Notes under the pieces: model-generated | Seen by the model: the letters and a program-made list of their open reading frames with translations, nothing else | Database searches by the model: none | Told to the model about the DNA's origin: nothing | Source of the DNA: Rhizophagus irregularis | Lineage: Eukaryota | Direction of reading: 5' to 3' | Length of the DNA stretch: 64,000 nucleotides | Assembly (NCBI RefSeq): GCF_026210795.1 | Contig: NC_089431.1 | Location: 1,922,001 to 1,986,000 of the forward strand | Program-made: the position numbers and the translations under genes | Part shown: one piece after another, positions 2,400 to 47,460 of the stretch | Layout of the letters: every line of letters begins with the position of its first letter | How positions within the stretch are numbered: position 1 is the first letter of the stretch

Positions 2400-2482
2400 G
2401 ACGGCATGGCCGAGCGGTTAAGGCGTTAGACTTGAAATCTAATTCCCTTTGGGGAGCGTAGGTTCAAATCCTGCTGCCGTCG
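2400..2482 (+). tRNA. tRNA-Ser (anticodon TGA)
   Basis: Acceptor stem GACGGCA/TGCCGTC with G discriminator, D-arm TGGCCGAGCGGTTAAGG, anticodon arm TTAGA-CTTGAAA-TCTAA, long variable arm, T-arm GGTTCAAATCC, and a downstream poly-T Pol III terminator. Confidence 0.96.
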
Positions 2483-7000: not shown

Positions 7001-9480
7001 TGTCACGTAAATAAAATTTTTATTCAATAAAATTTACGATAAAAAAAAGTTCTTTTTTATTGGAGTCATTTATAATACTTCGCATGATCACTCCGGGAAC
7101 GATATTTATAAAATTTGTGAAACATGATAACAATGAATAATATAACAATGCGTCGAAATCGTCAAATTTATATCGTCCTTTCATTTTGAGAACTTTCATG
7201 TTTAAATTAAATAAATACTTGTCAAAAAAATCCATTACCGATGGGATAAAGACACATATTAACGTAAGTGATTATACATTTTTTGATCAATGTAATCGAT
7301 GTATCTAAATTTTTATATATGTGCATACGATTTAGTCGTTTAGATCAAGGATTCAATACACTTTTTTTTTTATTTTAAACTAGGAAAGAAAACCAAAAAA
7401 GTGAACGTTTCATGATTTTTGGATCATTCAATCAGATTGCTTGTTGTTCAGTGAAGATTAACTTTGGATGCTTTTTTTAAAAAATTTTACTGCTTTAATA
7501 ATAATCACGGCGGGACGGATTCATCTCGGCGAATGCATATTCTAATTGCTTATAAACCTTGAGTTTGTAGTTAAGAAAGTTACTGAGTTACAAAATTAAC
7601 AAATTAAGTATCTTACAATAAAGAATTAGCAATAAATATATGCTTATTTAATACAAGCGCCAAATATTTCAAGTCATAATATGAGCCTCACTAATATGCT
7701 ATTAATGCTATTCATAGTTTATTAAATACAAATAGATTAAATAGATTCCATTCTGCTTTTACAAATTACATAAATACCGAATTTCTGCTACAGGGACTTT
7801 CTGTAGTATCAAAAATTCACTCCCTGGAGTCGTTAATTCATTATGAGAATATTATATTTATATCTTGGAACAAAAAACTTCAGGCAAAAATATTATTATT
7901 AATTATATTATAATTTATCGCACATTTTGTCATACAGTATCACGCGATTCTTGAATAATAGAATTGAGGACCTCATAATATACCATAATTATCACATTTT
8001 TTGGAAATGGCACATTACATAAACTGTTAGCAGATAATATTATTAGGAAATAACTTTGTACATATGTGAGATGATTTATTTAGCGTATTCAATAACATAT
8101 TTACGATCTGTTTCTAAAAACTTTTTAATTAGTAAATCTTTTCAACTTCTTTACATTTCTCTCTTCCCAAATTCCTGAAAAAAAAAATACTCACGTGATC
8201 AACAAATATAGCCACTTAATATTAATCTTTAGATATGCTTCATGCTAAATCAAACATGAGACACAATCAATTATCAAATCACTACTTCGCACCCTTGTTG
8301 CTTATTTATGATATGATTCCAAACTTTTAATTTCGTATATTAAAGACCAAATTAACGATTTATCTCGAGTCACATGGAAACAGCGTAACGATAATTTCAA
8401 AGCCTGGTAAGGATTACAAACGATCCAAAATACATTATAAAAGAAATTTCGAGCATTTACCTACACACGATCTCACGAAGAGATCATATTAACATTTTTG
8501 TTCCGCCTTATCATAAACACAACCCCCGTATTGATCCGTCTGGCATCAAATTTTTTACATTCAGGATCATGGTCTTCACATAGAGATGAACTTTTATTTG
8601 AACAAATAGATTTATTTGATATATTTCGGTTTGATTCTATTTTTTAAATTGTATAATAATCATTTAGTTACGTAATTAGTTTTTTTTATTTCTCTTTTTT
8701 TTTCTTTTTTTTGGTGCAGACACTTGGGTACTGGCGTACCTTCCTGTCGTTTTTTTTCCTTTTTTTTTTACCACTAGAGTGAAGTTGTCTCTTAGGCGAC
8801 TTGTTTTACAGTTTATTTTTGTACTACTTTTGATTCTATTATACAGTTTCTTTGTAATCTTTACTGGAACTTTTTTTACTCTGAGAAATAAAAATAAAAA
8901 ATAAAACATTAGATATGCTTCAAAATAATTTTTAATAATTTAGATATTCATTGTATAAATGATAAAGAGAAAACAGCCACAAGGATTGTTTGAATATAAT
9001 GTTATGCCATTTGGATTGAATTTGAGTAACTAATTTATAAAAGAAAAACACAAAATTAATCCATAATTAATTGCTTTTTTCAATCAACTTTTTGTTTTGG
9101 ATTTAAAAAAAAATTTTTTTTTTTATTTGACCTTATAAACAAGTAATGTAGAACAAATAATTAAATTGGTTATACAAGACTAAAATATTTATTTTGGATG
9201 AATTTAGGATTATGAAAATTACATAAGGATGATCGTCCAATATGTGAAATTAGACTAAATGTGTTAATATCATTTTAAACAAAAATAACAAAAATACAAT
9301 TCAACCATATAAATGGAACAAAAGAATTACCTAATCATCAATTATCATAACAATCATCATAAATTACATCATTGCATATCGAAAAATTACAAATCACAAA
9401 TAAGTTAACAATCGATTATAAAGTCCTGTATATTTTTCAAATTTTTTTTTGATTTTTATACATAAAAAAGTTTGAAAAAG

Positions 9481-10621
9481 ATGAGAATAGAAAGGTGGAC
9501 TTTAGAAGTTCTAGTTAACGAAATACCTCTTCAGGAATATGTAATTTCTGATTCAGTACTTGGAGTAAATATAATTAATTAATTATTAGATTTCTCCCTT
9601 TTTTTATCATATTCACGATTGATTTTTTTTCCTTATATTAAATAGGCCAGTGCATCTAACGCATTGAAATCATATGTGGTCGAAGGAGATCGAAAGAAAT
9701 TTTGGTATAATATTCAAAAAATTATACTTGACTACAATGAATCATTAACTTTTTTATTTATTTATTTATTTTAGCGACTCGGCTACTTTTGTTGCAGTTC
9801 CAGCACCTGGAACACATTATAGCATAGTAGTTTCTCCGAGCACAAGTGAAATCGCACCCAAAATTTATGTAGATGGTATAAATGACGGCTATTATGTAAA
9901 CAGTAGTACTTCGTCATATGGCATCGTTAAGGGTTTTTATAATGGAAATAAAACAATGAGATATGATTTTATTTTCGATAAAACAGAATGGATTGAAACG
10001 GATATTCCACAAAGAACTAAATATGGTGGACTTGGTGCAATATCTGTTTATTTCTATAAAATTATAAATAAGTATAAATCATCAAGAAATTATAATTCAG
10101 AAAAAGCATTTGAAAAGGTAAAGATTCCGGAAACGAAGAAATGTTTTGACGTGGGTCTTACCACAAAATTTTCCGAAGGCATAGAATATTATGGTTATGG
10201 TTCAATAAATTCGATAATAAGAGAAAATGAACCATTAGCTGTACTTCACATTAATTATCGTTTAGCTGATTGGCTTATTCCGATGGCTACTAATACGAGT
10301 TATACGGCCTCTGCTGTTTACCGAACAAATACACAAAATTCCTGTGCTTCTGCTTCTACATCTACCTCATCTACATCTACCCCATCTACATCTACCCCAT
10401 CTACATCTACTACTGCTACTTCGTCTGCTCCTGCGTCTACCTCTTCTTCTGCTGCTACTAATATAGACATTAAAAATGAAGTTAATAATTTTGAAAACGA
10501 TACTGAAAATAAACCTTTAATTACTCAATCTGTCAAAAAGAGGAAACGAAGATACCAAGAAATGATCATAATATTGGATTCGGATGAGGAGTGCACACAT
10601 GAAGTGGTGGAGTTAGATTAA
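9481..10621 (+). CDS. Fungal hypothetical protein (DUF7918-like N-domain) with Ser/Thr linker, NLS and C-terminal SIM-like motifs; 3 exons
   Basis: ATG 9481 (MRIERWTLEVLVNEIPLQEY). Two GT-AG introns splice in frame into ORF 9956..10621. Motifs IYVDG, LGAISVYFY, PLAVLHINYR, KKRKRR, IIILDSDEE. Confidence 0.8.
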
Positions 10622-12371
10622 TATGACAAATGTTTTATTTTTTCAATAATATAGTTATCTAAATATTTAATGTTCTAGAGATAGTAATTTGTTCCTGTTG
10701 TATTAAAAAATGTTACGTGATACCCCTATAAATAGTAGCTAGCCTATATATATAAATGCACTTTATTAGCTAGCATTCAAAAATAAATGTATAATAAAAA
10801 AAAAAATTCATAAAATTCAAAACTCATTCCCATTTTCTTCAATTTTTCATATAACAGATTTTTATTAATTCTAGTGAACAAAAGACCGTTTCAGAATATG
10901 TACTGTAATTCAGTTCTTTGAAGTAAATACTGTATAATAAGATTGGCTTAATAAAATAAGCTAGAGTTGAGATCCGTGTATCCATGTATTCGTGGTATAT
11001 ACAGAGCGACAAGGATCTTGCTTTGGGAAGAACAAACAAGAGAAAGCAAGAGAAAGAGATTTTGATTGGGGAAAAAGATGCTACAAATCATACAATGAAT
11101 CCATAATTTGATAGATAAGTGCCATCACCAGCTGGCCCGATGGTTATGTCAGAATTACAAGATCATTTTGCTACCTAAATTCGAAATGTCACATATGGTG
11201 CTCAAGAATAAAAGAAAAATCCAATCAAGGACAGCATGCTAACCTAGTCACATTTCAGATTTTGAATGTTTCTTTTGTACAAGTTAAGAGAGTACAAGTA
11301 TTGCAAGGTCATCAAGTGCACCGAGGAGTACACTTCTAAGACGTATGGGCATTGCGAACAAATCAATGACAAACTGGGTGGAGATGGATCAGGATGTGAA
11401 CGGGCAAGAAACATCTTACTCAAATTGTTAACGGAGGGTCAGGTTTTGGCCTACTTTGGGACATAAACCTGTAGGGATGCGATATGAATGATGCAGATAA
11501 TGCATAAATAATATAATATCTATCTATAGGCTTTATAATTTATTTTTTATTATCAAGTAATTTATATAATACATAAAATTTTAAGGCATTTTGTTTAAAA
11601 CTGATCCTTGTTCATTGTCTTCCTATATACAATTATTAGAGTTCCGCCTGATCTAAAATTCAAAATCCATTATCCAAATCACTAAAAAGATAAAAGGAAT
11701 ATTAGTACGTTCCCAAAAAAAGAACCTCTTTTTCAACAGAGGCGGAAAAAATATTAAAAAAGACAAAGGTTTAAACCATTTTATAATAAAAAAATAGATT
11801 TTATATTTATTATTAATCATTTAGATATTAAAACAGATGAAAACTAAACCGAGAAAAGTAATTTAATTGTTTCTATTGTTTTTCAATTGTGAATGGCCAA
11901 AAAAAACTATCCGTGGATACTATTCGTTAGAATACACGGATAACTAAAAGGCATATCGGCGGATTTGCGTAATCATATTAATCATATTATAGAAATGATT
12001 TGTTCGGCTGACATGCACAAAGTGCACATGTGCACATTAGTGTTTAAATGTGCACAGTTGTACAACAAAAAATGTGCACAAATTATTACTAAAAATAGAT
12101 AAATTATATATAAAAAAAGCAACTTTACATAATGATTTGTTATGATTTCTTAATTTAGTAATAAATTTATCAACTTGTGCACATGACTTTTGGTTCAGAT
12201 CTTACACACTGCTGACATGTTGATTGCGCAAATCGTTTAAAAGGGAGTTCATGTTTTTGTATGACAAACATTTTTTCGAAGTTTAAATTAACTTGTTTGC
12301 ACACTAATTCTTCGACTGTTTTGTTGTTTTTTTTTTGTTGAATATAATTCCAAAGTATCAAATTTTATTGA

Positions 12372-15099: not shown

Positions 15100-16654
15100 T
15101 TTAGAGTTAGTTACATAATTTTTTTTTTGTTTTTGTGACAATGAAATCTTTTTTGTGTAAAATCTTAATTTTAATTGATTTAAAACTTTAATATACTGTT
15201 ATACTGTATATGTTTTATACAAATTTTTTGTTTTGCTTTTTTTTCTCTTCAGAATTAAAGAATTACAAAGAAGTTATGTAAACTTCATTTACAAAGTTTT
15301 AAGAACTATGTATATTTCTTTTAATAGATAATAATAAAGATAAAAATAAAAATTAATAAAAGAATAAAGATTAATTTATAAAATCCAGTTCCAGCGGAAA
15401 AATATTAAAAAAAGACCATTTTATAATAAAAAAATAAAAATTTATATTATTTAGCCATGGCAATCATCAAAAGCTGTGCAAAATCTGTATAGAAATGGAA
15501 CGGAATATTGTCTTAGCTGTACTCCTATTAACATTAGGTGGATCACCAAGTAAAGAAACAACTTTGATACACAAGACAACCAATATGATGTTCTTTTATG
15601 TTTTAATTGAATGAATAATATTGTTATGTGTCAAAATCGTTACGACGTTACGTGATATTAATTACACCAAATTTATATCGTCATTTTCATTTTGAGAAAT
15701 GTCACGTTTAAATTAAATAATTGATCGATGTAATCGATGTACAGTATCTAAATTTTACTAGTCATTTAGATCAAGGATTCAATATACTTTTTTTGTATTT
15801 TAGAGTTCAAACTTGAATGAATTGTAGGAAAAAAACCAAAAAATTGAACGTCCAATGATTTTGGATCTTTTAATCAGATTGCTTGTTGTTGTTCAAATAA
15901 AATTAACGTTCAGATGCTTTGTTTAAAACATTTTACCGTTTTAATAATCACGGCGCTCTCGGCAAATGCATCTTCTAATTGCTTATATATTCATTGTAAA
16001 CCTTGCTTATTTAATACAAGCGTCAAATATTTCAAGCAATAATATAAGCCTCACTAATACGCTATTAATGCTATTCATTAAATAGATTCCATTCCCACTT
16101 TTACAAGTTACATAAATACCAAATTTCTGCTTAAGAAGAATATTATTTTTATATCTTGGAACAAAATCTTCAGGCAAAAATATTACTAATTATATTATAA
16201 TTTAACGACCGAGTTATAGATTCATTAAAAATCACGATAGAATTTATACATATTGATATGTGAGATGATTTATTTAGCGTGCCAATTCAATAACTGATAA
16301 CATTTCTAAAAACTTGTTAATTAGTAAATTTAGGATATATAAGGATGATTTTATACCTGACAAATACTGTGACACGTAACAAAATTGTAAAACTCCTCTG
16401 TTAAATATGTGAATTAGACTAAATGTGTAATAGACTAAATGTGAGAAATAAAAGTCATAATGTCATTATTATAATTAGAACAAAAGAATTACTTAAATAT
16501 CATAAAATCCATAACAATCACATAAATTACATCATTGTATTGGTTAAATGTTCAAAATTTTTTTGACAATCATAACAATCAGTCGACTATAAAATACAGT
16601 ATATTTCTCATTTTCATCTTACTTTAGACTTTTATACATAAAAGTTTGAAAAAG

Positions 16655-17847
16655 ATGAGAATAAGAAGGTGGACTTTAGAAGTTTTAGTGAACGAAATAC
16701 CTCTCCGAGAATATGTAATTTCTGATTCAGTACTTGGAGTAAATATAATTAATTATTAGATTTTTTTTTTTTAGTATCATATGTATCATATTCAAATAAA
16801 TGATTTCTTTTTCTTATAATAAATAGGCCAGTGCATCTAACGTATTGAAATCATATGTGTTCGAAGGAAATCGAAAGAAATTTTGGTATAAAAATTCAAA
16901 ATTTATACTTGACTAAATAAATCATAACTTTTTATTTATTTATTTATTTATTTTAGCGACTCGGCTACTTTTATTGCAGTTCCAGGACCTGGAACATATT
17001 ATAGTATAGTGGTTTCTCCAAGCATAAGTAAAATCGCACCCAAAATTTATGTAGATGGTAGAAATGACGATTCTTATGTAAAAAGTAGTGATTCATCATT
17101 TAGCATCGTTAAAGGTTTCCATAATAGAAATAGAACTATAAGATATGATTTCATTTTCGACAAAACAGAATGGATTGAAACGGATATTCCACAAAGAACT
17201 AAATATGGTGGACTTGGTATAATATCTGTTTATTTCTATAAAGTCAAAGAAAGGTATGAATCATCAAGAAATTATAGTTCGTATTTGAGCTATGATCTAA
17301 ACAAAGATTTTAAAGGAGTAAAGATTCCAGAAACTAAGAAATATTTTGACGTGGCTCTTACCACAAAATTTCCGAAGGCATAGAATGTTACGGTGATCGC
17401 TCATCATATAAAATAGTAAGAGATGATGAACCATTGGCTGTACTTCACATTAATTATCGTTTAGCTGATTGGCTCATTCCGATAGTTGCTAATATTTATA
17501 CACAAAATTCCTGTGCTTCTTCTTCTACATCTACCTCATCTACGTCTTCCCCATCTACATCTACTACTTCTACTTCGTCTGCCCTGGCGTCTACCTCTTC
17601 TTCTGCTGCTACTAATGTAGACATTAAAAATGTCAAAAAGAGGAAACGAAGATACCAAGAAATGATCGTCTCTTCTGCTGCTACTAATGTAGACATTAAA
17701 AATGAAGTTAATAATTTTGAAAGCGATACTGAAAATAAACCTTTAATTACTCAATCTATCAAAAAGAGAAAACGAAGATACCAAGAAATTATCGTAATAT
17801 TGGATTCGGATGAGGAGTGCACACATGAAGCGGTGGAGTTAGATTGA
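16655..17847 (+). pseudogene. Paralog of 9481..10621 with 1-bp frameshift
   Basis: Same exon structure as the first copy. ACAAAATTTCCG replaces ACAAAATTTTCCG at ~17370, splitting it into ORFs 17009..17383 and 17434..17847. A sequencing error in the T-run cannot be excluded. Confidence 0.75.
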
Positions 17848-18109
17848 ATATGACAAAACTCATCGAAAATATAGAAATAGTTGTATTAAAATGTTACATG
17901 ATAACCTTATTAATAGCTAGCCTAAATATCTCAATGCATTTTATTAGCTAGGATTCAAATATAAATGTATATTCAACCCCGCTAAAAAAACCAAGTTTTC
18001 ATATACAATTTTTAATCTAAAAAAATCGATAGATTGACTTAATTTTAAAGACATACTGTAATTCAGTTCTTTGAAGTAATATAGTAAGATTTGCTTAATA
18101 AAAATGAGC

Positions 18110-18704
18110 TAGAGTTTAGATCCATGTATTCGTGGATATGTTTCCGTGATAAAATACAATATCCGTAATCCCTATAAAAAAATTGAACAGGTAATCCATA
18201 TCCATATAATACGGATGATTCGGATAATGCAGATAACGCGGATAACTGTGTAATATCTAGGGTTTTATAATTTTATTTTTTTATTCTCAAATAATTTATA
18301 ATAATATATAATATTTTAAGACATTTTGTTTCGCCGTTCATGGTCTTCCTATATTAGATCTAATTCAAATCCAAATCACTAAAAAAGTAAAAACAAAGGA
18401 ATATTAGCACGTTTCTAAAAAAAAACCTCTTTTCAGCTTACAATTCCAGAGCCCAGTATTCAAGAGACCGAAGTCTAGGTCCAGGAGGAGGGATAAAGGA
18501 AAAGGACGAAAGAGAAGGAAAGGGCAGAAAAAATATTAAAAAAGATAGGGTTATCCCATTTTTATAACAAAAGAAATAAATTATCATTATTTTTTTTAAT
18601 AAAAAAAGGACTATCCGTGGATACTACCCGAATAATAAAATGAGTATCCGCAATCCGTTATCCGTATGAATACACAGATAATGGATACATGGATCCAAAT
18701 TCTA
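18110..18704. mobile_element. hAT-type MITE
   Basis: Termini TAGAGTTTAGATCCATGTAT / ATACATGGATCCAAATTCTA with 8-bp TSD AAATGAGC/AAATGAAC. An older counterpart starts at 10962. Confidence 0.8.
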
Positions 18705-25234: not shown

Positions 25235-27545
25235 TTAGAAGCGTCCAAACCAAAATGGACAACTTCTGTGACAATTGTGCGTTTTATTCACAAGTTTCCT
25301 AAACTTAGGAGTACCAAGAGTATCACGTTTGAATTTCATTTTTGTTGATGAGGAGCTCGGATTACAAAGTTTATCAAAGAAAATGTTAAATGATTCTTGA
25401 AAAACCTTTCGTATTGCTAGAAGAATTTCCAAGTCATCAACAAAATTTGATACCTCTCTCAAAGAAGCGGGAATTGTCACTTTTCCTATATTAATCATGA
25501 TGTACATTCCCCGGACAAGATCCATCATATAGAATTCAACTGTATAATCTATAAAAGTAAATACTATCAAGTTACAAACAAAATCGTGAAAAAAAAAGCA
25601 ACTACTATAATGTTCCTTACCTACGCATTGGAACCCTAATATTTTTATATCAGCGCCTAATTCTATAGATGAATCAAGACAGTCTTTCATAAAGACTCCA
25701 ACACGGATCAGATCATTACAATTTTTGTAAACATTGTTTTTTTCTGAGGGTGGACTAACCTCACCCACAAATATGACACCGTTCAATTGTAGCTGGTGGA
25801 TTATTGAGACTGTGAAATCGGGCTGTTTGCTTCTGATACCTTGTAGCTTTTTTGCTTTACTTTCGTTAATTTCTGTATTCGGCCATTCCACAATGTGCTT
25901 GTCTGGATCATGTAACATTTCTCTCATAATGTGGTCAAGGTAATTTGTAATCAGAGTTGTTTCGCTTGGCTCATTTTTAATTTTTGCGGTTGGCAATTTC
26001 TTAAGGCATTCCAAGATCATGGAACCAAAGTTCTCATTCAACATTTGATCATTTGTAAGTTCCGTTAACAGAAATTTTGTGGCACTGCTACGCGATTCTT
26101 TTATTGCCTTTTTGATCACTTTCCTCAACTTTAATTCACATTCCGTATATAATTCTATTTGCTGAGGAGGATTCGCTTGTTGGTAGATATCATCAAGTAA
26201 AGAAGAACTGAATATGTCGATCATCGTTTTTGAATGAGAGCCAGAATTAAGAAGGAAAATCGAAGATAATGATAATATCTCGTGAACATTAGATTCAACA
26301 AAAAGACCCCCAGTTTTTGCGATCTTGATAGATTCATTTTGATATTGACGGAATAATCGAGAAACATTGATCTCTCTTATTTTAAGATCGTCGATAGAGT
26401 CCTCATCCTTGAAGGATAATTCATCTGGAATATCATTAATTATTATCGGGTAATCCTCCCCCTCTTCTTCAATAAATGGATTACTCGTCGATGGATTATC
26501 CATCGGCAATGAATGTACTTTTGGACTACTTGGCGTGGGAGAAGTGTACTCGTCTTGTTCTTGTCTTTTTGAAATCCTATTCTCATTATAATCAACTCTT
26601 GGTCTCTTTCTTAGTGAGTAAGACTTGCTATCATTATCTGTAACTGACTCATCCTAGAGTATATCAAATAAATTTGATGATGAATTATATGGGTCGCTTT
26701 TTACCTAATGACGTTAACAATGTAATTCATACCAGCTCCTTATTAACATTTTTCATAATGTTTTCAACGCCTTCTTTAGTCCCCTTTGCCATAACACGAG
26801 CTATTTTTAGCTGTAATTCAGAACAATAATTAGCACACCATCTAACAATATCGAAGTAAGTAAAATTTATTGACCTGGTCCAACTTTAGTTGGCTTTTTT
26901 CTTTGGCATGGTCTATATCCAGAGATTCACATTCAACTTCATTCCAGAATCTATCGATATCCACGTTCTTGTTTCGATGTTTCTTTAGGGTTAATATAAT
27001 TTGTTAGCATCTTGTCCTCACTGGAAAAGCAGACAATAACGGGGTCTTTAGAAGACTGCCGGCAAAGCAGACCACAACGGGATCTAATGAACGCCGTAAG
27101 GTCAGGTGGGACGCATGCACCCGCCATAGTTGTGTGAGTGTTACCCCTTCTCAGGACTGCTGGAGGCCCCCACCTCTACAAAACTTGTAGACCACAACGG
27201 GATCTAACGAACGCCATAAAGTGAGCGGGACGCACGCGCTCACCGTAGTCGTGGAAGCATGTTCCCCTTCTCGGGACTTAACAGGGTCCTCCATACTGCC
27301 TGCCAGTGATCAAAATGAAAAATGATACTCGCCTCAAAAACATCAAGTAAATTTTGAGCTTTTCGTTTCTTTAGATCCGACCCATTTTCCACCAGGTATT
27401 CCAGGCACTTGTGGAGTCTTTGTGCCTCTAGGCGAAAATTGCTTGTAAAATCATCTTGACTTTTACGATACTGGTAATAACCAAGAAATCGGTATTTTTC
27501 TGGTGTCGTTGTCTCAAAATATTCATCAAGAGGATACTTCTCCAT
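25235..27545 (-). CDS. REase-fold (PD-(D/E)XK-like) Crinkler-related protein; 5 exons, apparently intact
   Basis: Exons ~27545-27333, 26982-26875, 26810-26733, ~26653-25621 and ~25549-25235 join in frame. C-terminal motif KQPDFTVS..VGEVS..NDLIRVGVFMKDCLD..LGFQCV. Confidence 0.78.
27020..27310 (-). ncRNA. Putative structured RNA element (two ~120-nt tandem units plus a partial third) inside a GC-AG intron
   Basis: GC-rich repeats with AGACCACAACGGGATCTAA at 27069 and 27189. Nested stems show compensatory changes between the copies. Confidence 0.5.
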
Positions 27546-31998: not shown

Positions 31999-32850
31999 TT
32001 AATCACAATTGTTTCCTTCTGTACGTAGAAAATCAGCATAGTAGTTACTAATATGATTACCATAAAAACCAGCGTTTGAATCTCCGATGTAAAAGGTTTG
32101 ACACGTTTCAGGTGCCGAATAATAAAAGCTATTCTGCTGATATTGCTGTTGAGCCAAAAATGTATCAAGACCATCCGCATGACCATATTCATATGGTAAA
32201 GGGTTCATTTCATTTACTTGTTCTTGAGTAATGTTAGTACGACTTGTCTCTCTTACTTGACAGTTGATTTGTTTATAACTGCAGGGAACTCCATTCCCTT
32301 CTTGGTTTTCCGTAATAAAGTTTACACGACCTGTCTCTCTTACTTGACAGTTGATTTGTTTATAACTGCACGAAACTCCATTCCCTTCTTGGTTTCCCGT
32401 AATAATGTTAATACCACAACTTTCGTCTATTTGAAGGTTGGGTGATTTATATTTCTTATTACAATAAACGAAGTTGATACGAGGTTTTCTATGGCGTTTT
32501 TCGATATGATTTGGATAAATTTTGCTATGTTGTTCTTTAAGTAATTTAGTTAAATCCACATAGCATTTTTTTTCCTCCATGGTAGCTTCTCTCCATATGT
32601 GAGCAGCAACACGGGAGAGATTCTTTCCATCATAAGGTAAGGATTTCTTTACAACATGATTTAGACAACGTCGAAAAACCATAAAGTTGTTCATCGGTTT
32701 TGGTTGGCGGTTTGTTCTTCTAACTGTAGCTTGCGTTTGTAACTTACTTATCATATCACTTACTATATCTTCCGACAAAGGGAACAATATTTTTTTATCT
32801 ATCATTCTAATAATTTGTATGTCAACATTAGATAAAGAGTTGTCCTTCAT
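31999..32850 (-). CDS. MATA/SOX-type HMG-box transcription factor
   Basis: PKPMNNFMVFRR..NLSRVAAHIWREATMEEKKCYVDL..EQHSKIYPN. ATG at 32850; probable 5' UTR intron upstream. Confidence 0.9.
   Translation of the reverse strand: MKDNSLSNVDIQIIRMIDKKILFPLSEDIVSDMISKLQTQATVRRTNRQPKPMNNFMVFRRCLNHVVKKSLPYDGKNLSRVAAHIWREATMEEKKCYVDLTKLLKEQHSKIYPNHIEKRHRKPRINFVYCNKKYKSPNLQIDESCGINIITGNQEGNGVSCSYKQINCQVRETGRVNFITENQEGNGVPCSYKQINCQVRETSRTNITQEQVNEMNPLPYEYGHADGLDTFLAQQQYQQNSFYYSAPETCQTFYIGDSNAGFYGNHISNYYADFLRTEGNNCD
32241..32403. repeat. 87-bp in-frame tandem duplication within HMG gene
   Basis: Two copies of IT.NQEGNGV.CSYKQINCQVRET.R. Confidence 0.95.
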
Positions 32851-34989
32851 GGTAAATAACGTACAAGACACGATTGATAAACTATATGATTATAAAGAAA
32901 TAGGGAAAACAAATGGAATTAGCGAAAGGAAATAAAAAAAAATAATTAATCTATATCATTAATATATAGAGTTTACTTACTACTATTATTTATTTCAAGA
33001 AAAAAAATTTTTAACAGCAATCGTGAAGTAAAATGAAAAAGAAAGTTGAGGGCTTTTATAGATCTTTTGTCAACGTTGGAAAAATAAAAAAAAAAAATTT
33101 TTTTAATTTGTTAACTTAATAATTTATTTGCCTCTTTATGTTTTAAATTACAATCACATTATCCTATCAATCAATCATCACCAAAGTACGGTATATATTA
33201 TATATATATAAAAAAAAAAAGATTACAAATAGAGAAATAAGAAATAAAGAAATTTTTAATAAAAATAAATTTTAATGTAACACGTCTAAAGATAGTAAAT
33301 TGGGCTTTTTAAAAAAAAGGAAATTTTTCTTTCATAACTATCGACCTATATCTTCGCATTCTTAAAATTTCCTTTCGAGAGGAATGAAAGTCACACTAGC
33401 AAGCCACAAATGGCTTGAGATCCGAGATATGACGGTAAATAATTCCGTAGTGCAGGAGGATAAATTAATTCCGAGATTTCGATTGAGGATAAATTAATTC
33501 CGAAATTAACATTAATTTCGTTTATCTCATCGGTATTATGTATTAACACCGATGGATTTTTTTTTTGTCATCTACGAAATCCATCGGTGTATACGTCATA
33601 CACAACGAGTTAAGTCCGTTATTCCATGGATATCTAATAAAAACCACATATACATCGATGCTTCTCTCCCTTCGCTCCCTTCGGGTGGGCCTCAAGACAA
33701 CAATGAATATTTTAATTATTCATTGATATCCATAGTGTAATTCCGTTAGACCGTTACAGGGGGGAATAAATTCAATTGAAACTCACTCTGCCCACGTTTT
33801 CTCCTGTCACACATTTCACAACCTATTAGTTTTTTTTAAAAAAAAATAAAATACCAATCCCCTTATTAATTCAATAACAATGTGTTACAAAAAAAAAAAG
33901 TTTCTTTTACCAATAAAAAAAAAAATTTTTTTTCCTTAAAACTGGTACAGCCAAAGCAATTAATTAATTAATTAATTAATTAATTATCAAAAAAAAAAAA
34001 AAAAAAAAGATAAACAAATAAATAAAAATAAGTTTAGGGTTTAGTGACGGAAAAAAAAAATTTTTAGATTTAGATTATAAGAAAAAAAAATAAATAAATA
34101 AATAAAAAAAAACTAAAAATAAAAAAAAATCAACTTTTTTTTTTTTGGAAACATTTTTTTTCGAAAAAGAAAAGAAAGAAAGAAAAGAAAGAGATAAAGA
34201 AATCAAACGCATGCAGTGTAGAATTGATCTTATGACTCGAAATTTTATATTTCTAGATAAACAATAATTTCTAGAATTCTTAAGATAAGATAATTGGAAA
34301 TGTTTGTTTATCATTTCGAAAAAAAAAAAAGTTATCTTAAGTTTATGATTTTATTGATAGAGTCAAATGATCAATTTAATCATATCTAATCGACTCGTTA
34401 TAATTTCTTTTGCATATGAATTATTAATGGGAATTTTGTTTTTTTTGACAAAATATGACGCAAATAAAACAAAAACATTGTCGATCATTGAAACCACATG
34501 ATACAAATAAAGTTTTTCTTTTGGAATAATATCATCTGATTCACCAAACTGTAAGATATCATTCATTTAATCATAAATTAGTTGCTTAATTTGTTATTAT
34601 TTTATTCCTTAATATCGTTAAATCAGAGACAATAGAAAGAAAATCAAGGTTTGATCTGATAAGATATGTTTTTTTTATCTTTTCATGTAAGCCACACATT
34701 ATTAATGTAAGTCACCTGAATTAACTTGGGATTCATGTTTGCGGCGTTCGCCACAATTGCCACCTGCCACACTCGATAAATGATTCGAAATGACATATGT
34801 AATATTTTGGTTTATATATAATGTACTAAAAAATCAATTCTTAAAATTCTTAAATTTTTTCATTCATTAATATATCATATACCGTATATATATACACAAT
34901 TAATTATTTTCTTTTATTAAATAAATGATCTTTTAAATTTGAGATTCAAATATAAATATTATATAATGGTACCGACAGGTACCGTAGTC

Positions 34990-44884: not shown

Positions 44885-47460
44885 AATGACTTAACGTTTC
44901 TTTTTGTTATTTTTTTGTAAGATGTATACTAGAAGGTCACTGGCTTGAATACTACAAAACTGGACTTTAAGATAATGAAAAATGGGATAAGAGGAGATTT
45001 TTTGCTATTTTTAATTTAAGAAATAAACTAACGTTACTTTTCATTATTTTTTTTTATAGGATGAAGGATGTCAGGACGCTGGCTTGAATACTATAAAACT
45101 GGACTTTAAGGTAGTGAAAATGGAAAAGGGGGGAATTTTTACTATTTTTAATTTAAGAAATGAACTAACGTTTCTTTTTATTATTTTTTTTTATAGGATG
45201 GAGAATACCAACTTGAATACTACAAAACTGGACTTTAAGGTAGTGAGAAATGGAAAAAAAGAGGATTTTTGTTATTTTTAATTGAAGAAATAAACTAACG
45301 TTTCTTTTCATTATTTTTTTTTGTGATGGATGGATGTTCAAGCAATAATACTACGAAACTGATTTTAAGGTATAAAGGGGACAAAGGAAGGGGACTTTGC
45401 AAAGAGGAACTAAGATTTATACAAATCTTAGTTTTATTTTTTTTTTATTATTTTGGAACGGTTACTAATAACCATTCTTTTTTTATTTAGGTTCAGGTGG
45501 GTTTCTGAGTTCCAAAGAATGGAAGACTAAAGATTCATAAGTATGAACCTTTTTTTTATTTTTTATTTTTATGGAATGATTTACTAACTGTTCCTTTTTT
45601 TATAGGTTTGGTGAGCTTCTGATAAACAGGAACTAATATTCATAAAAATCTTAGTATTTTTTTTTATTTTATAGAACGGTTTACTAACTATTCCTTTTTT
45701 TTATAGGTTCAGATGAACGGGAAACTAAAATTCGTAAGAATCTTCATTTTTATTTATTTTTTTTTATTATTATGGAACGATTTACTAACCGTTCCTTTCT
45801 TTTTTTATAGGTTCAGTGGACTTCTGACGAACGGGAAACTAAAATTTGTAAGAATCTTAGTTTTTATTTATTTTTTTTTTATTATTATGAAATGGTTTAC
45901 TAACCATTTCTTTCTATTTTTTATAGGTTCAGTAGGCTTCTGATAAATGGGAAACCAAGATTCATAAAAATTTTAGTTTTATTTATTTTTTTTTATTATT
46001 ATGGAACGGTTTACTAACCATTTCTTTCTTTCTTTTATAGTGTTAAAATAGAAATGTGGCGCAGTAATTTTATGTAGATCAATTTTGTAGATCATTTCAT
46101 AGATCCCTTGATTTTTTTGATTTTTTTGATTTATTTGATAAATCTGATAAATTTGATAAGTTTGATATATTTGATTTATTTATTTTATTTTATTTATTTA
46201 TTTTATTTTATTTATTTTATTTGTTTGATATATTTATTTTATTTTATTTATTTATTTTATTTTATTTATTTATTATATTTGATTTATTTATTTTATCAAA
46301 TATTCTTGATTTTTATTTTATTATAAATAGTGATAGGATTTTACCAAGTAGAAGGGGAAGGTCAGTTAGTTAGTTAAGAATTGTATTGTAGTTTTCAAGT
46401 TATACGAAAAGAGTATTATTCCTAGTAGTATAATTTAAAATAATTAATTTCGCAACAAAGAGATTATCTATATTTTTTATTATATTTAAAATCTTACATT
46501 ATTTTAATAAAAACCTATTTTCTTTAACTGAACATCTAACGTTATTTCACGTGATTATTTGTGATCAACTTAAGACTCTCCTAGTTAAACTCCAGTTAAC
46601 CTGTTAAAGCGTTAAAGTTTTTCAGTCGACTTTAATCGTTAACAGGATAACAATAGGTTTGGTAGGCTTTTGATAAACGGGAAACTATGATTCATAAGAA
46701 TATTGGTTTTTATTTATTTATTTTATTATTATAGAATGGTTTACTAACCGTTTCTTTCTTTTTTTTATAGGTTCAGTATCTTGGAAGGGCTTCCGAAGAA
46801 TGGAAAAACCTAAAGATTTGTAAGTATGAGTATAAATCTTTTAGGTTTTATTTATTTTTTTAATATTATGAACAGTTACTAATAACCTTTCTTTTTCTTT
46901 TATTTTTTATAGGTACAGGTGGTTTTCTAAAGAACAAAAAACAATAAACTGAGGTTCGTAAGTATTTTACTATAAACTTTATATTTTTTTAATATTATGA
47001 ACAGTTTATTAACCATTCTTTCTTTTTTTTTAAAGAATCAGATAAATTTCTGAAGATTGGAAAATGGAGAACTAAGGTTTGTTATAAACCTTAAATTTTT
47101 TTTTTAATATTACGAATAGTTACTAACTGTTCTTTTTCTTTTATTTTTTAATAGTTTAAGTGGTCTTCTGAAGAACAGAAAACGGAAAACTAAGGTTTGT
47201 AAGTATTATATTATAAACCTTAGATTTATTTTTTTTAATATTATGAACAGTTCTAACCGTTCTTTTTATTTTATTTTTTAGGTTTCGGGTAGACCTCCAA
47301 TCTTCAGATAAAGTGGAACTAAGATTTGTAAGTACGAATCTTAGTTTATTTATTATTTTTTTTTTAAATATTATAGAACAGTTACTAACTGTTCTTTTTC
47401 TTTTTTTTAGGTCTTGGGTGGATTTCTGAAGAATGAAAAAAGAAGATCAAGATTTATAAG
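44885..47460 (+). repeat. Tandem array of ~110-135 bp units, each shaped like intron plus micro-exon
   Basis: Recurring (TA)CTAAC - poly-T - TAG | 30-50 nt | GTAAG units. Confidence 0.85.

Follow-up and report, generated by a model that had tools for sequence, protein, structure and literature searches.

Several described systems come close to the element reported here. In the autoregulatory introns of fungal RPS13 and lysyl-tRNA synthetase (PMC8216456) and in the plant DEAD element (10.64898/2026.01.23.701338), a conserved intron structure is tied to one gene family and unproductive splicing is likely, and the same holds for our locus. The fungal intronic TPP riboswitches (PMC3597705) share with it a long structured intron, long-range pairing, and a UGAGA-like segment; the ToxIN type III repeats (PMC8860590) share the arrangement of repeated RNA units co-transcribed with a nuclease (a probable one in our case). 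On the protein side there is a likeness to the Crinkler/CR-type header-plus-REase proteins, which in the relevant sections of PMC5289972 have, like the host protein described below, a conserved N-terminal header followed by interchangeable C-termini with a PD...E-type motif.

The locus nevertheless departs from each of these systems. Unlike the autoregulatory introns, the element lies in an orphan gene made of a header and a variable C-terminus, not in a gene for a ribosomal or RNA-processing protein; its predicted fold is a larger, multi-junction one that occurs in monomer, tandem, and strand-swapped forms, and it belongs to Mucoromycota, whereas the survey of PMC8216456, in the part at hand, is of Ascomycota only. 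In contrast to the TPP riboswitches, it has neither a TPP model match nor the rest of the aptamer, and its host is unrelated to thiamine. It differs from ToxIN in being a eukaryotic intron with units of 80-120 nt, in which no processing to monomers is seen and whose host has no ToxN-like protein match. The host protein, unlike Crinklers, has no Crinkler Pfam match or LFLAK motif and has a predicted fold only, and the CR/Crinkler text in the covered part of PMC5289972 mentions no RNA element. A literature search of abstracts and main-text passages found no description of the motif, and the sections covered of PMC8647823 and 10.1101/2022.10.19.511543 do not mention it. In its proposed mode of action it most resembles the autoregulatory introns, and in its setting the intronic TPP switches. 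We regard the element as a new structured RNA family, belonging to no described family that we found, whose function we infer below.

The element occupies intron 1 of a gene on the minus strand of the window, by which we mean the whole 64-kb stretch of Rhizophagus irregularis DNA that was analysed (Table 1). A sequence-only reading of this DNA had pointed to a non-canonical GC-AG intron, unusually long and GC-rich, with two 120-nt units in sense orientation, and both observations were confirmed: the intron runs from GCGAGT to TAAAG on the minus strand and is 51% GC, against 24-28% GC and 64-79 nt for introns 2-4, and the two units of about 120 nt are spaced 120 nt apart. A 20-mer common to both units occurs twice in the window, versus 0/100 shuffles. 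That reading had overlooked a truncated third copy (27018-27060), a region that is shorter in two of the homologous loci described below (L007 and L008) and that carries an indel and substitutions in RNA run X17. A scan with the element model found no further unit elsewhere in the 64-kb window, and no inverted repeats bracket the host gene. The window also contains a gene-bearing 1.75-kb segment duplicated at 76% identity (9239-10989 and 16404-18137, plus strand), an open frame of 296 aa (31999-32889, minus strand) with an HMG-box-like motif that we take to be of MATA-HMG type, and a low-complexity repeat tract with strong AT skew (46068-46373, plus strand).

Table 1. Features of the host gene and its intronic element, in positions of the window.
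Feature	Position	Strand	Basis or remark
Exon 1, helical "header" domain, 71 aa	27333..27545	-	100% match to R. irregularis P0001; header common to whole family
Intron 1, GC-AG	26983..27332	-	350 nt; unspliced in every RNA contig seen; paralog contig diverges exactly at same acceptor
GC donor GCGAGT	27327..27332	-	Identical in L007; GA in broken copy L008; GT in L009
Outer helix 5' arm and P0 5' strand	27296..27309	-	Pairs with 27066-27070 and 3' CCAGTG arms
Unit 1 P1 strand	27282..27293	-	Pairs with unit 2 P1 strand, 11/12 positions
Unit 1 P2 hairpin, GAGAAR loop	27264..27278	-	Nearly invariant block; pair counts
Unit 1 core: P3, UAY, covarying P4 (27220-27244), UUAYGG, variable loop	27193..27253	-	Alignment, pair counts, pair probabilities
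P0' hairpin: unit 1 P0 3' strand and unit 2 P0 5' strand	27175..27191	-	Invariant in 3 loci; pair probabilities 0.54-1.0
Unit 2 P1 strand	27161..27172	-	Pairs with unit 1 P1 strand
Unit 2 P2 hairpin	27144..27158	-	Alignment, pair counts
Unit 2 core (P3, P4 at 27100-27125) and P0 3' strand	27066..27134	-	Alignment, pair counts, pair probabilities
Truncated third copy (only P0 5' start and 3' end) and distal outer arm	27018..27060	-	Repeat families D1, D2
Likely branch point GCTAAC (27003-27008) and AG acceptor	26983..27008	-	Sequence; paralog with TAAC at corresponding place; predicted use
Exon 2, remainder of header	26875..26982	-	Without in-frame start codon; in-frame stop upstream within intron; HR...FW motif retained in L009
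Exons 3-5 and spliced introns 3, 4	25235..26810	-	RNA joints; probable PD-(D/E)XK domain at about residues 377-528 (secondary structure, weak fold matches)

Contigs assembled from four RNA runs (three studies) contain joints at introns 2, 3, and 4, and none skips intron 1 (0/4 runs, at a contig depth of 2-12 with rare forms dropped), so that the excision assumed by the earlier reading did not appear. Three contigs in which intron 2 is spliced run unspliced through the acceptor and both units; two of these extend through the donor into exon 1, and the remaining one terminates 26 nt past it. The interior of the element is covered by a poly(A) run. Because coverage is low and rare forms are lost from contigs, retention is best described as common, which is not proof that splicing never happens. 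When intron 1 is retained, the reading frame stops inside the element, giving products of 101 aa in the window (TGA at 27240-27242, in the unit 1 core), 88 aa in L007, and 90 aa in L009. Two marks of autoregulatory introns are thus present, namely a structure fixed to the intron of one family and an unproductive isoform with a premature stop, retained in all four runs. The R. irregularis annotations mirror this situation: they include P0025, the 101-aa product of retention, P0026, a distinct downstream model of 468 aa, and a spliced model of 581 aa; P0001 joins exon 1 to exon 2 across intron 1. We infer that intron 1 is probably spliced at times, because exon 2 lacks an in-frame start codon, its HR...FW motif is kept in L009 at 54% DNA identity, and exon 1 is joined directly to exon 2 in 13 of the 115 family representatives; the absence of a coding signal in exon 2 in the comparison with L007 (below) speaks against it. 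GC donors look common in the family: the first residue after exon 1 is Ala in 30 representatives (20 of them "AS", as a GC donor gives) and Val in 11, with 74 unscored, a heuristic count that is biased to Ala/Val calls. About 1% of human introns have GC donors (PMC3167603). Inside the element, a cryptic GT donor and AG acceptor (27243 and 27176, minus strand) are chosen by gene predictors in many species; no joint at these sites occurs in the RNA contigs examined.

Homologous DNA was recovered in intron 1 of three of eight metagenome matches (L007, L008, and L009). The other five (L006 and L010-L013) were set aside as chance matches, with scores no higher than 12.4 bits, whereas true units score 89-108. 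L007 and L008 are dimers, and in L009 a distant paralog whose intron 1 is GT-AG carries a monomer. Across the family the element takes the form of a monomer, a homo-tandem, or a dimer modelled as strand-swapped. DNA contigs contain two more copies, which differ in the inner hairpin (two others in each DNA run, at a likeness of 80%); genomic copy number was estimated from such contig pieces. All three true DNA matches lie in header genes, as do 6/6 matches of an element peptide. Among tails of family proteins long enough to test (at least 20 aa, a length that 28 of the 115 representatives do not reach), 27/87 carry sense-frame traces of the element, above all 870 shuffles, versus 0 for antisense. 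These traces range from Glomeromycotina to Endogonales. At the peptide level, P0016 and P0022 carry homo-tandems of the L009 type, and P0051, P0058, P0079, and P0081 carry tandem units of reduced length in which P3, P4, and a purine-rich linker are retained; short units apparently lack the P2 stem, and some homologs apparently have a shorter P4 loop. Pattern scans of viral contigs returned only chance matches (1 and 4) or nothing and those of genome contigs none, locus scans with protein queries over viral and prokaryote collections returned nothing, and neither did blastn against plasmids and phages.

L008 (529-1164, minus strand) is a broken copy that still keeps the element: its donor reads GA, not GC, its exon 1 is frameshifted, and a stop interrupts its exon 2. 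It matches the window at 97% identity in intron 2 and exon 3 and at only 85% in exon 1, a mosaic that suggests recombination between paralogs. The headers of Endogonales proteins P0007, P0019, and P0044 are about 70% identical to the Rhizophagus header (window 27333-27545) and go with the same dimer type, which may reflect either strong constraint or horizontal transfer.

The element is more strongly conserved than the gene around it. Between the window and L007 the units are identical at 230/242 positions (95%), compared with 329/375 for exons (p 0.003) and 83/100 for other intron sequence (p 0.0009). Sites of synonymous type are also frozen in the element (pS 0.05-0.06), compared with a pS of 0.31 in exon 1, for which dN is 0.14 and dS 0.40; exon 2 shows no coding signal in the same comparison (dN 0.096, dS 0.112). 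L008 gives a similar contrast of element and exon in a sequence that is mosaic. Mixed frames, stops, indels, and these frozen third positions exclude the element as coding sequence. That many gene models imply a cryptic coding exon nonetheless (15 of the 23 first homologous protein models include translated element) carries negligible weight with us, given that the models use differing frames, that stops are present in the window and L007, that indels of 1 nt and 4 nt separate units and species, and that no internal RNA joints are seen; for a shared peptide, the idea is refuted. The element instead explains a run of wrong gene models that splice it in as exons.

The monomer of L009 suggests a closing helix P0 and two hairpins, P1 and P2, the latter with GAGAAR in its loop; P3 follows and is connected by UAY to P4, a variable hairpin, after which come UUAYGG and a variable loop. 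The modelled fold is accordingly a four-way junction, P0-P1-P2-P3, with a P3/P4 arm, of which the window would hold two, back to back, through swapped P0 and P1 strands. In the window-type dimer, the P0 strands of unit 1 fail to pair with each other (3/5 positions) and instead pair completely across units (5/5, twice), and the P1 halves of both units form a single helix (11/12 positions), which together make the inner junction a circular permutation of the outer. Constrained refolding favours the strand-swapped fold over independent monomers by 19-26 kcal/mol, yet places it 11-15 kcal/mol above the free minimum. L007 and L008 populate its inner half well, and there the inter-unit P1 helix has pair probabilities of 0.63-1.0 at 10/12 positions; in the window's ensemble that helix is at about 0 and most helices have near-zero probability. 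G-U pairs favour the sense strand as the folded one. In L009 (282-392, minus strand), UCUGCU stands in the P4 loop, in the loop after UUAYGG, and in the 3' P0 strand, each complementary to 5' AGGCAG, and the peptides of P0051 and P0079 suggest that the first two loops are alike there too; these repeats could possibly be a switch or a repeated binding site.

Pairing in this fold was assessed across seven aligned DNA units from four loci (about three lineages, with related rows), in which 125/126 cells are paired, compared with 45-52% in slid controls. Every stem named by the sequence-only reading is present in the window, and several of its details need adjustment. P4 does covary in DNA, with two-sided change at three pairs in the seven units; the number of such pairs among these related units is not above shuffles (59/500). 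Its GGAGG/CCUCC helix is only part of the longer 12-position helix with 11 pairs, and its outer CACUGG/CCAGUG helix is found in the window, L007, and L008 (TCACTGG/CCAGTGA, like UCUACAA/UUGUAGA, is unchanged in the latter two) but is absent from the monomer L009. The UGCGUCC loop, described as conserved, is limited to the window's two units and is different in L007, L008, L009, and the two other genomic copies. A GAGA tetraloop of GNRA type is not the best register, since the base after GAGAA varies between G and A (L007 unit 1), and RNAalifold instead pairs CCY/GGG around a 6-nt loop. Nor is the structure visible in single-sequence folding energy, which is no better than that of shuffles (sense-strand z -1.1 to +0.8). 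From Endogonales, peptides of Jimgerdemannia models point to two-sided changes, C-G to U-A for P3 and U-A to C-G for P0', the inter-unit hairpin, with letters fixed by the amino acids. No pairing of element and donor is conserved among the homologs compared.

Comparison with known RNA classes bore out the earlier view that the element is unrecognised and does not fit the TPP consensus. Rfam 15, which includes TPP and the small ribozyme classes, gave no match at the gathering threshold (the best on the element, at 16 bits and E 4.3, being a weak chance match) and none on the element in L007-L009; a scan of the whole window yielded one tRNA. The hallmark of TPP riboswitches is a UGAGA J3/2 together with the P4/P5 pyrophosphate arm; CUGAGA is found in unit 2 only, and the pyrophosphate arm motif is absent. 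The hammerhead core consists of CUGANGA and GAAA, and neither part is present on the window's sense strand, nor do the units contain the core motifs of the hairpin (loop B), twister (L4), or pistol (UAAAUA) ribozymes. Our own descriptor of an HDV-like nested double pseudoknot with a catalytic C, drawn up independently of the variant criteria in section 7 of PMC5640933, had no matches on the sense strands of the window and L007; one antisense match and four in L009 were common to no two loci. There is no C box and no conserved ACA tail of a snoRNA, and ARAGORN reports no tRNA on the element or in L007-L009. A tRNA-Ser(TGA) at 2400-2482 (plus strand) is among the best matches of the element model outside the element (R1, 11.9 bits, E 0.85), with its anticodon arm aligned to P4. 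A tRNA mimic, suggested by this match and by the U at position 3 of the P4 loop, was rejected, as the match is not significant and the P4 loop is apparently shorter in some homologs. Likenesses to SRP-Alu, a purine riboswitch, U6atac, and METTL16 sites were dropped because the cores are absent.

The host protein belongs to a family defined by its N-terminal header, with 115 representatives at 50% identity and named members in Glomeromycotina and Endogonales. The alignment of P0001 and P0016 is limited to the header, and their C-terminal parts differ. AlphaFold models are of low confidence (pLDDT 35 and 37), and fold-search matches are therefore leads only. In the model with pLDDT 37, the host C-terminus combines a PDF...GEVS motif with an alpha-beta pattern; the best VIA match of this model is a mitoribosome chain (Z 7.7, rmsd 4.4, 134 aligned), presumably of restriction-enzyme-like fold, and Foldseek matches it to SwaI, BstEII, and YaeQ (E 0.04-0.06). 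Searches of PDB sequences, Pfam, and the ESM Atlas gave no named match. The C-terminus is thus probably a PD-(D/E)XK-type nuclease, and the earlier description of a nuclease-fold gene is plausible from the motif and weak fold matches.

Our leading reading, held tentatively and at slightly less than even confidence, is that the element is a conserved, family-specific cis-acting RNA that gates the splicing of intron 1 and whose most likely reader is the header of the same gene. What argues for a splicing gate is that the element keeps its position, goes with weak donors, and has been duplicated repeatedly, and that retention brings a premature stop; a header feedback would be the most economical sensor because the RNA follows the header while the C-termini change. 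The element and the weak GC donor would together keep intron 1 retained; translation would then stop inside the element, so that only the header peptide is made in place of the full-length, probably nuclease-type protein, and the header domain would most likely read the RNA gate as negative feedback, with tandem copies presumably multiplying the binding sites. L009, which carries the element with a GT donor, runs contrary to this gate. The sequence-only reading had left a choice between an unrecognised cis-regulatory RNA, a ribozyme, and an intronic ncRNA. An unrecognised structured RNA is supported by conservation above coding level, covariation, the absence of an Rfam match and of a target-site duplication, and the same donor position in homologs. 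The cis-regulatory option fits best, since the intron is retained, GC donors recur, and the element is closely tied to intron 1; these data speak against a ribozyme and give no support to an independent intronic ncRNA.

A eukaryotic riboswitch other than TPP is unlikely; on this view every unit would be a metabolite or ion aptamer, with the tandem arrangement making the control of intron 1 splicing sharper. Its intron setting and splicing context would be like those of fungal TPP switches (PMC3597705). Invariant junction bases with variable helices, independent tandem arrays, and a UGAGA segment that resembles a T-loop also speak for it, but the host is from an orphan family with a variable C-terminus and no metabolic role seen, no Rfam aptamer matches, and P2 is apparently missing in short units known from peptides. 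It is rather improbable, in our view, that the intron RNA serves as scaffold or antidote, binds the header-nuclease and holds it inactive, as a eukaryotic analogue of type III toxin-antitoxin repeats, in which (for ToxIN, in the portion of PMC8860590 used) the antitoxins are RNA repeats. Tandem units are co-transcribed with a probable nuclease, intron-containing RNA is abundant, and the RNA tracks the header and not the C-terminus; against this, nuclease activity and toxicity are putative, P0001 has no Pfam or PADLOC match, no pseudoknot was seen, and contigs, which show ends poorly, contain no monomer ends or units cut to monomers. If it were true, the RNA would both block splicing of a selfish nuclease gene and bind its header, arrayed or strand-swapped to raise the dose.

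Small ribozymes tolerate circular permutation and recur in tandem, and the fold of the element, P0 being loop-closed and P1 open, does both around a conserved single-stranded core; a new class of self-cleaving ribozyme is quite improbable all the same, as it has no hammerhead, hairpin, twister, or pistol core and no HDV-like fold common to the loci, and RNA contigs pass both units intact in three runs, which argues against fast cleavage. The dominance of retained RNA and the annotated 468-aa model starting in exon 3 would suit an element that restarts ribosomes on the downstream frame of a retained two-frame transcript, yet out-of-frame ATGs lie between the element and the 468-aa start, and the exon 2 motif is kept although it is translatable only after splicing, leaving this reading with very little probability. 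Scarcely any more remains for a passive transposon relic or recent insertion (MITE, SINE, Introner) whose folding is incidental, and we regard it as largely refuted. Insertion of a mobile element with target-site duplications, named by the earlier reading as what would overturn it, was checked, as were MITE, CACTA, and Introner features: the 7-bp inverted ends (TCACTGG/CCAGTGA), the GC-rich island, the two genomic copies of unplaced context, and the flat folding z-scores fit an insertion, but there is no target-site duplication, the ends are absent in L009, copy number is low, and the element is always in intron 1 of one family and conserved above the exons.

Fungal RNA-motif screens so far have centred on Ascomycota, according to the part of PMC8216456 covered here, and a structured RNA that is old and spread through a whole gene family of Glomeromycotina and Endogonales would therefore be new ground. 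It is a doubtful but conceivable prospect that the element is a new RNA device that senses a ligand or a protein in early-diverging mycorrhizal fungi, be it an RNA antidote encoded in an intron or the first eukaryotic riboswitch outside the TPP class. The element is, moreover, a compact candidate should eukaryotes have a second class of riboswitch. For the fungi themselves, the element may provide a handle on how these multinucleate symbionts silence a gene family that is orphan and probably of nuclease type.
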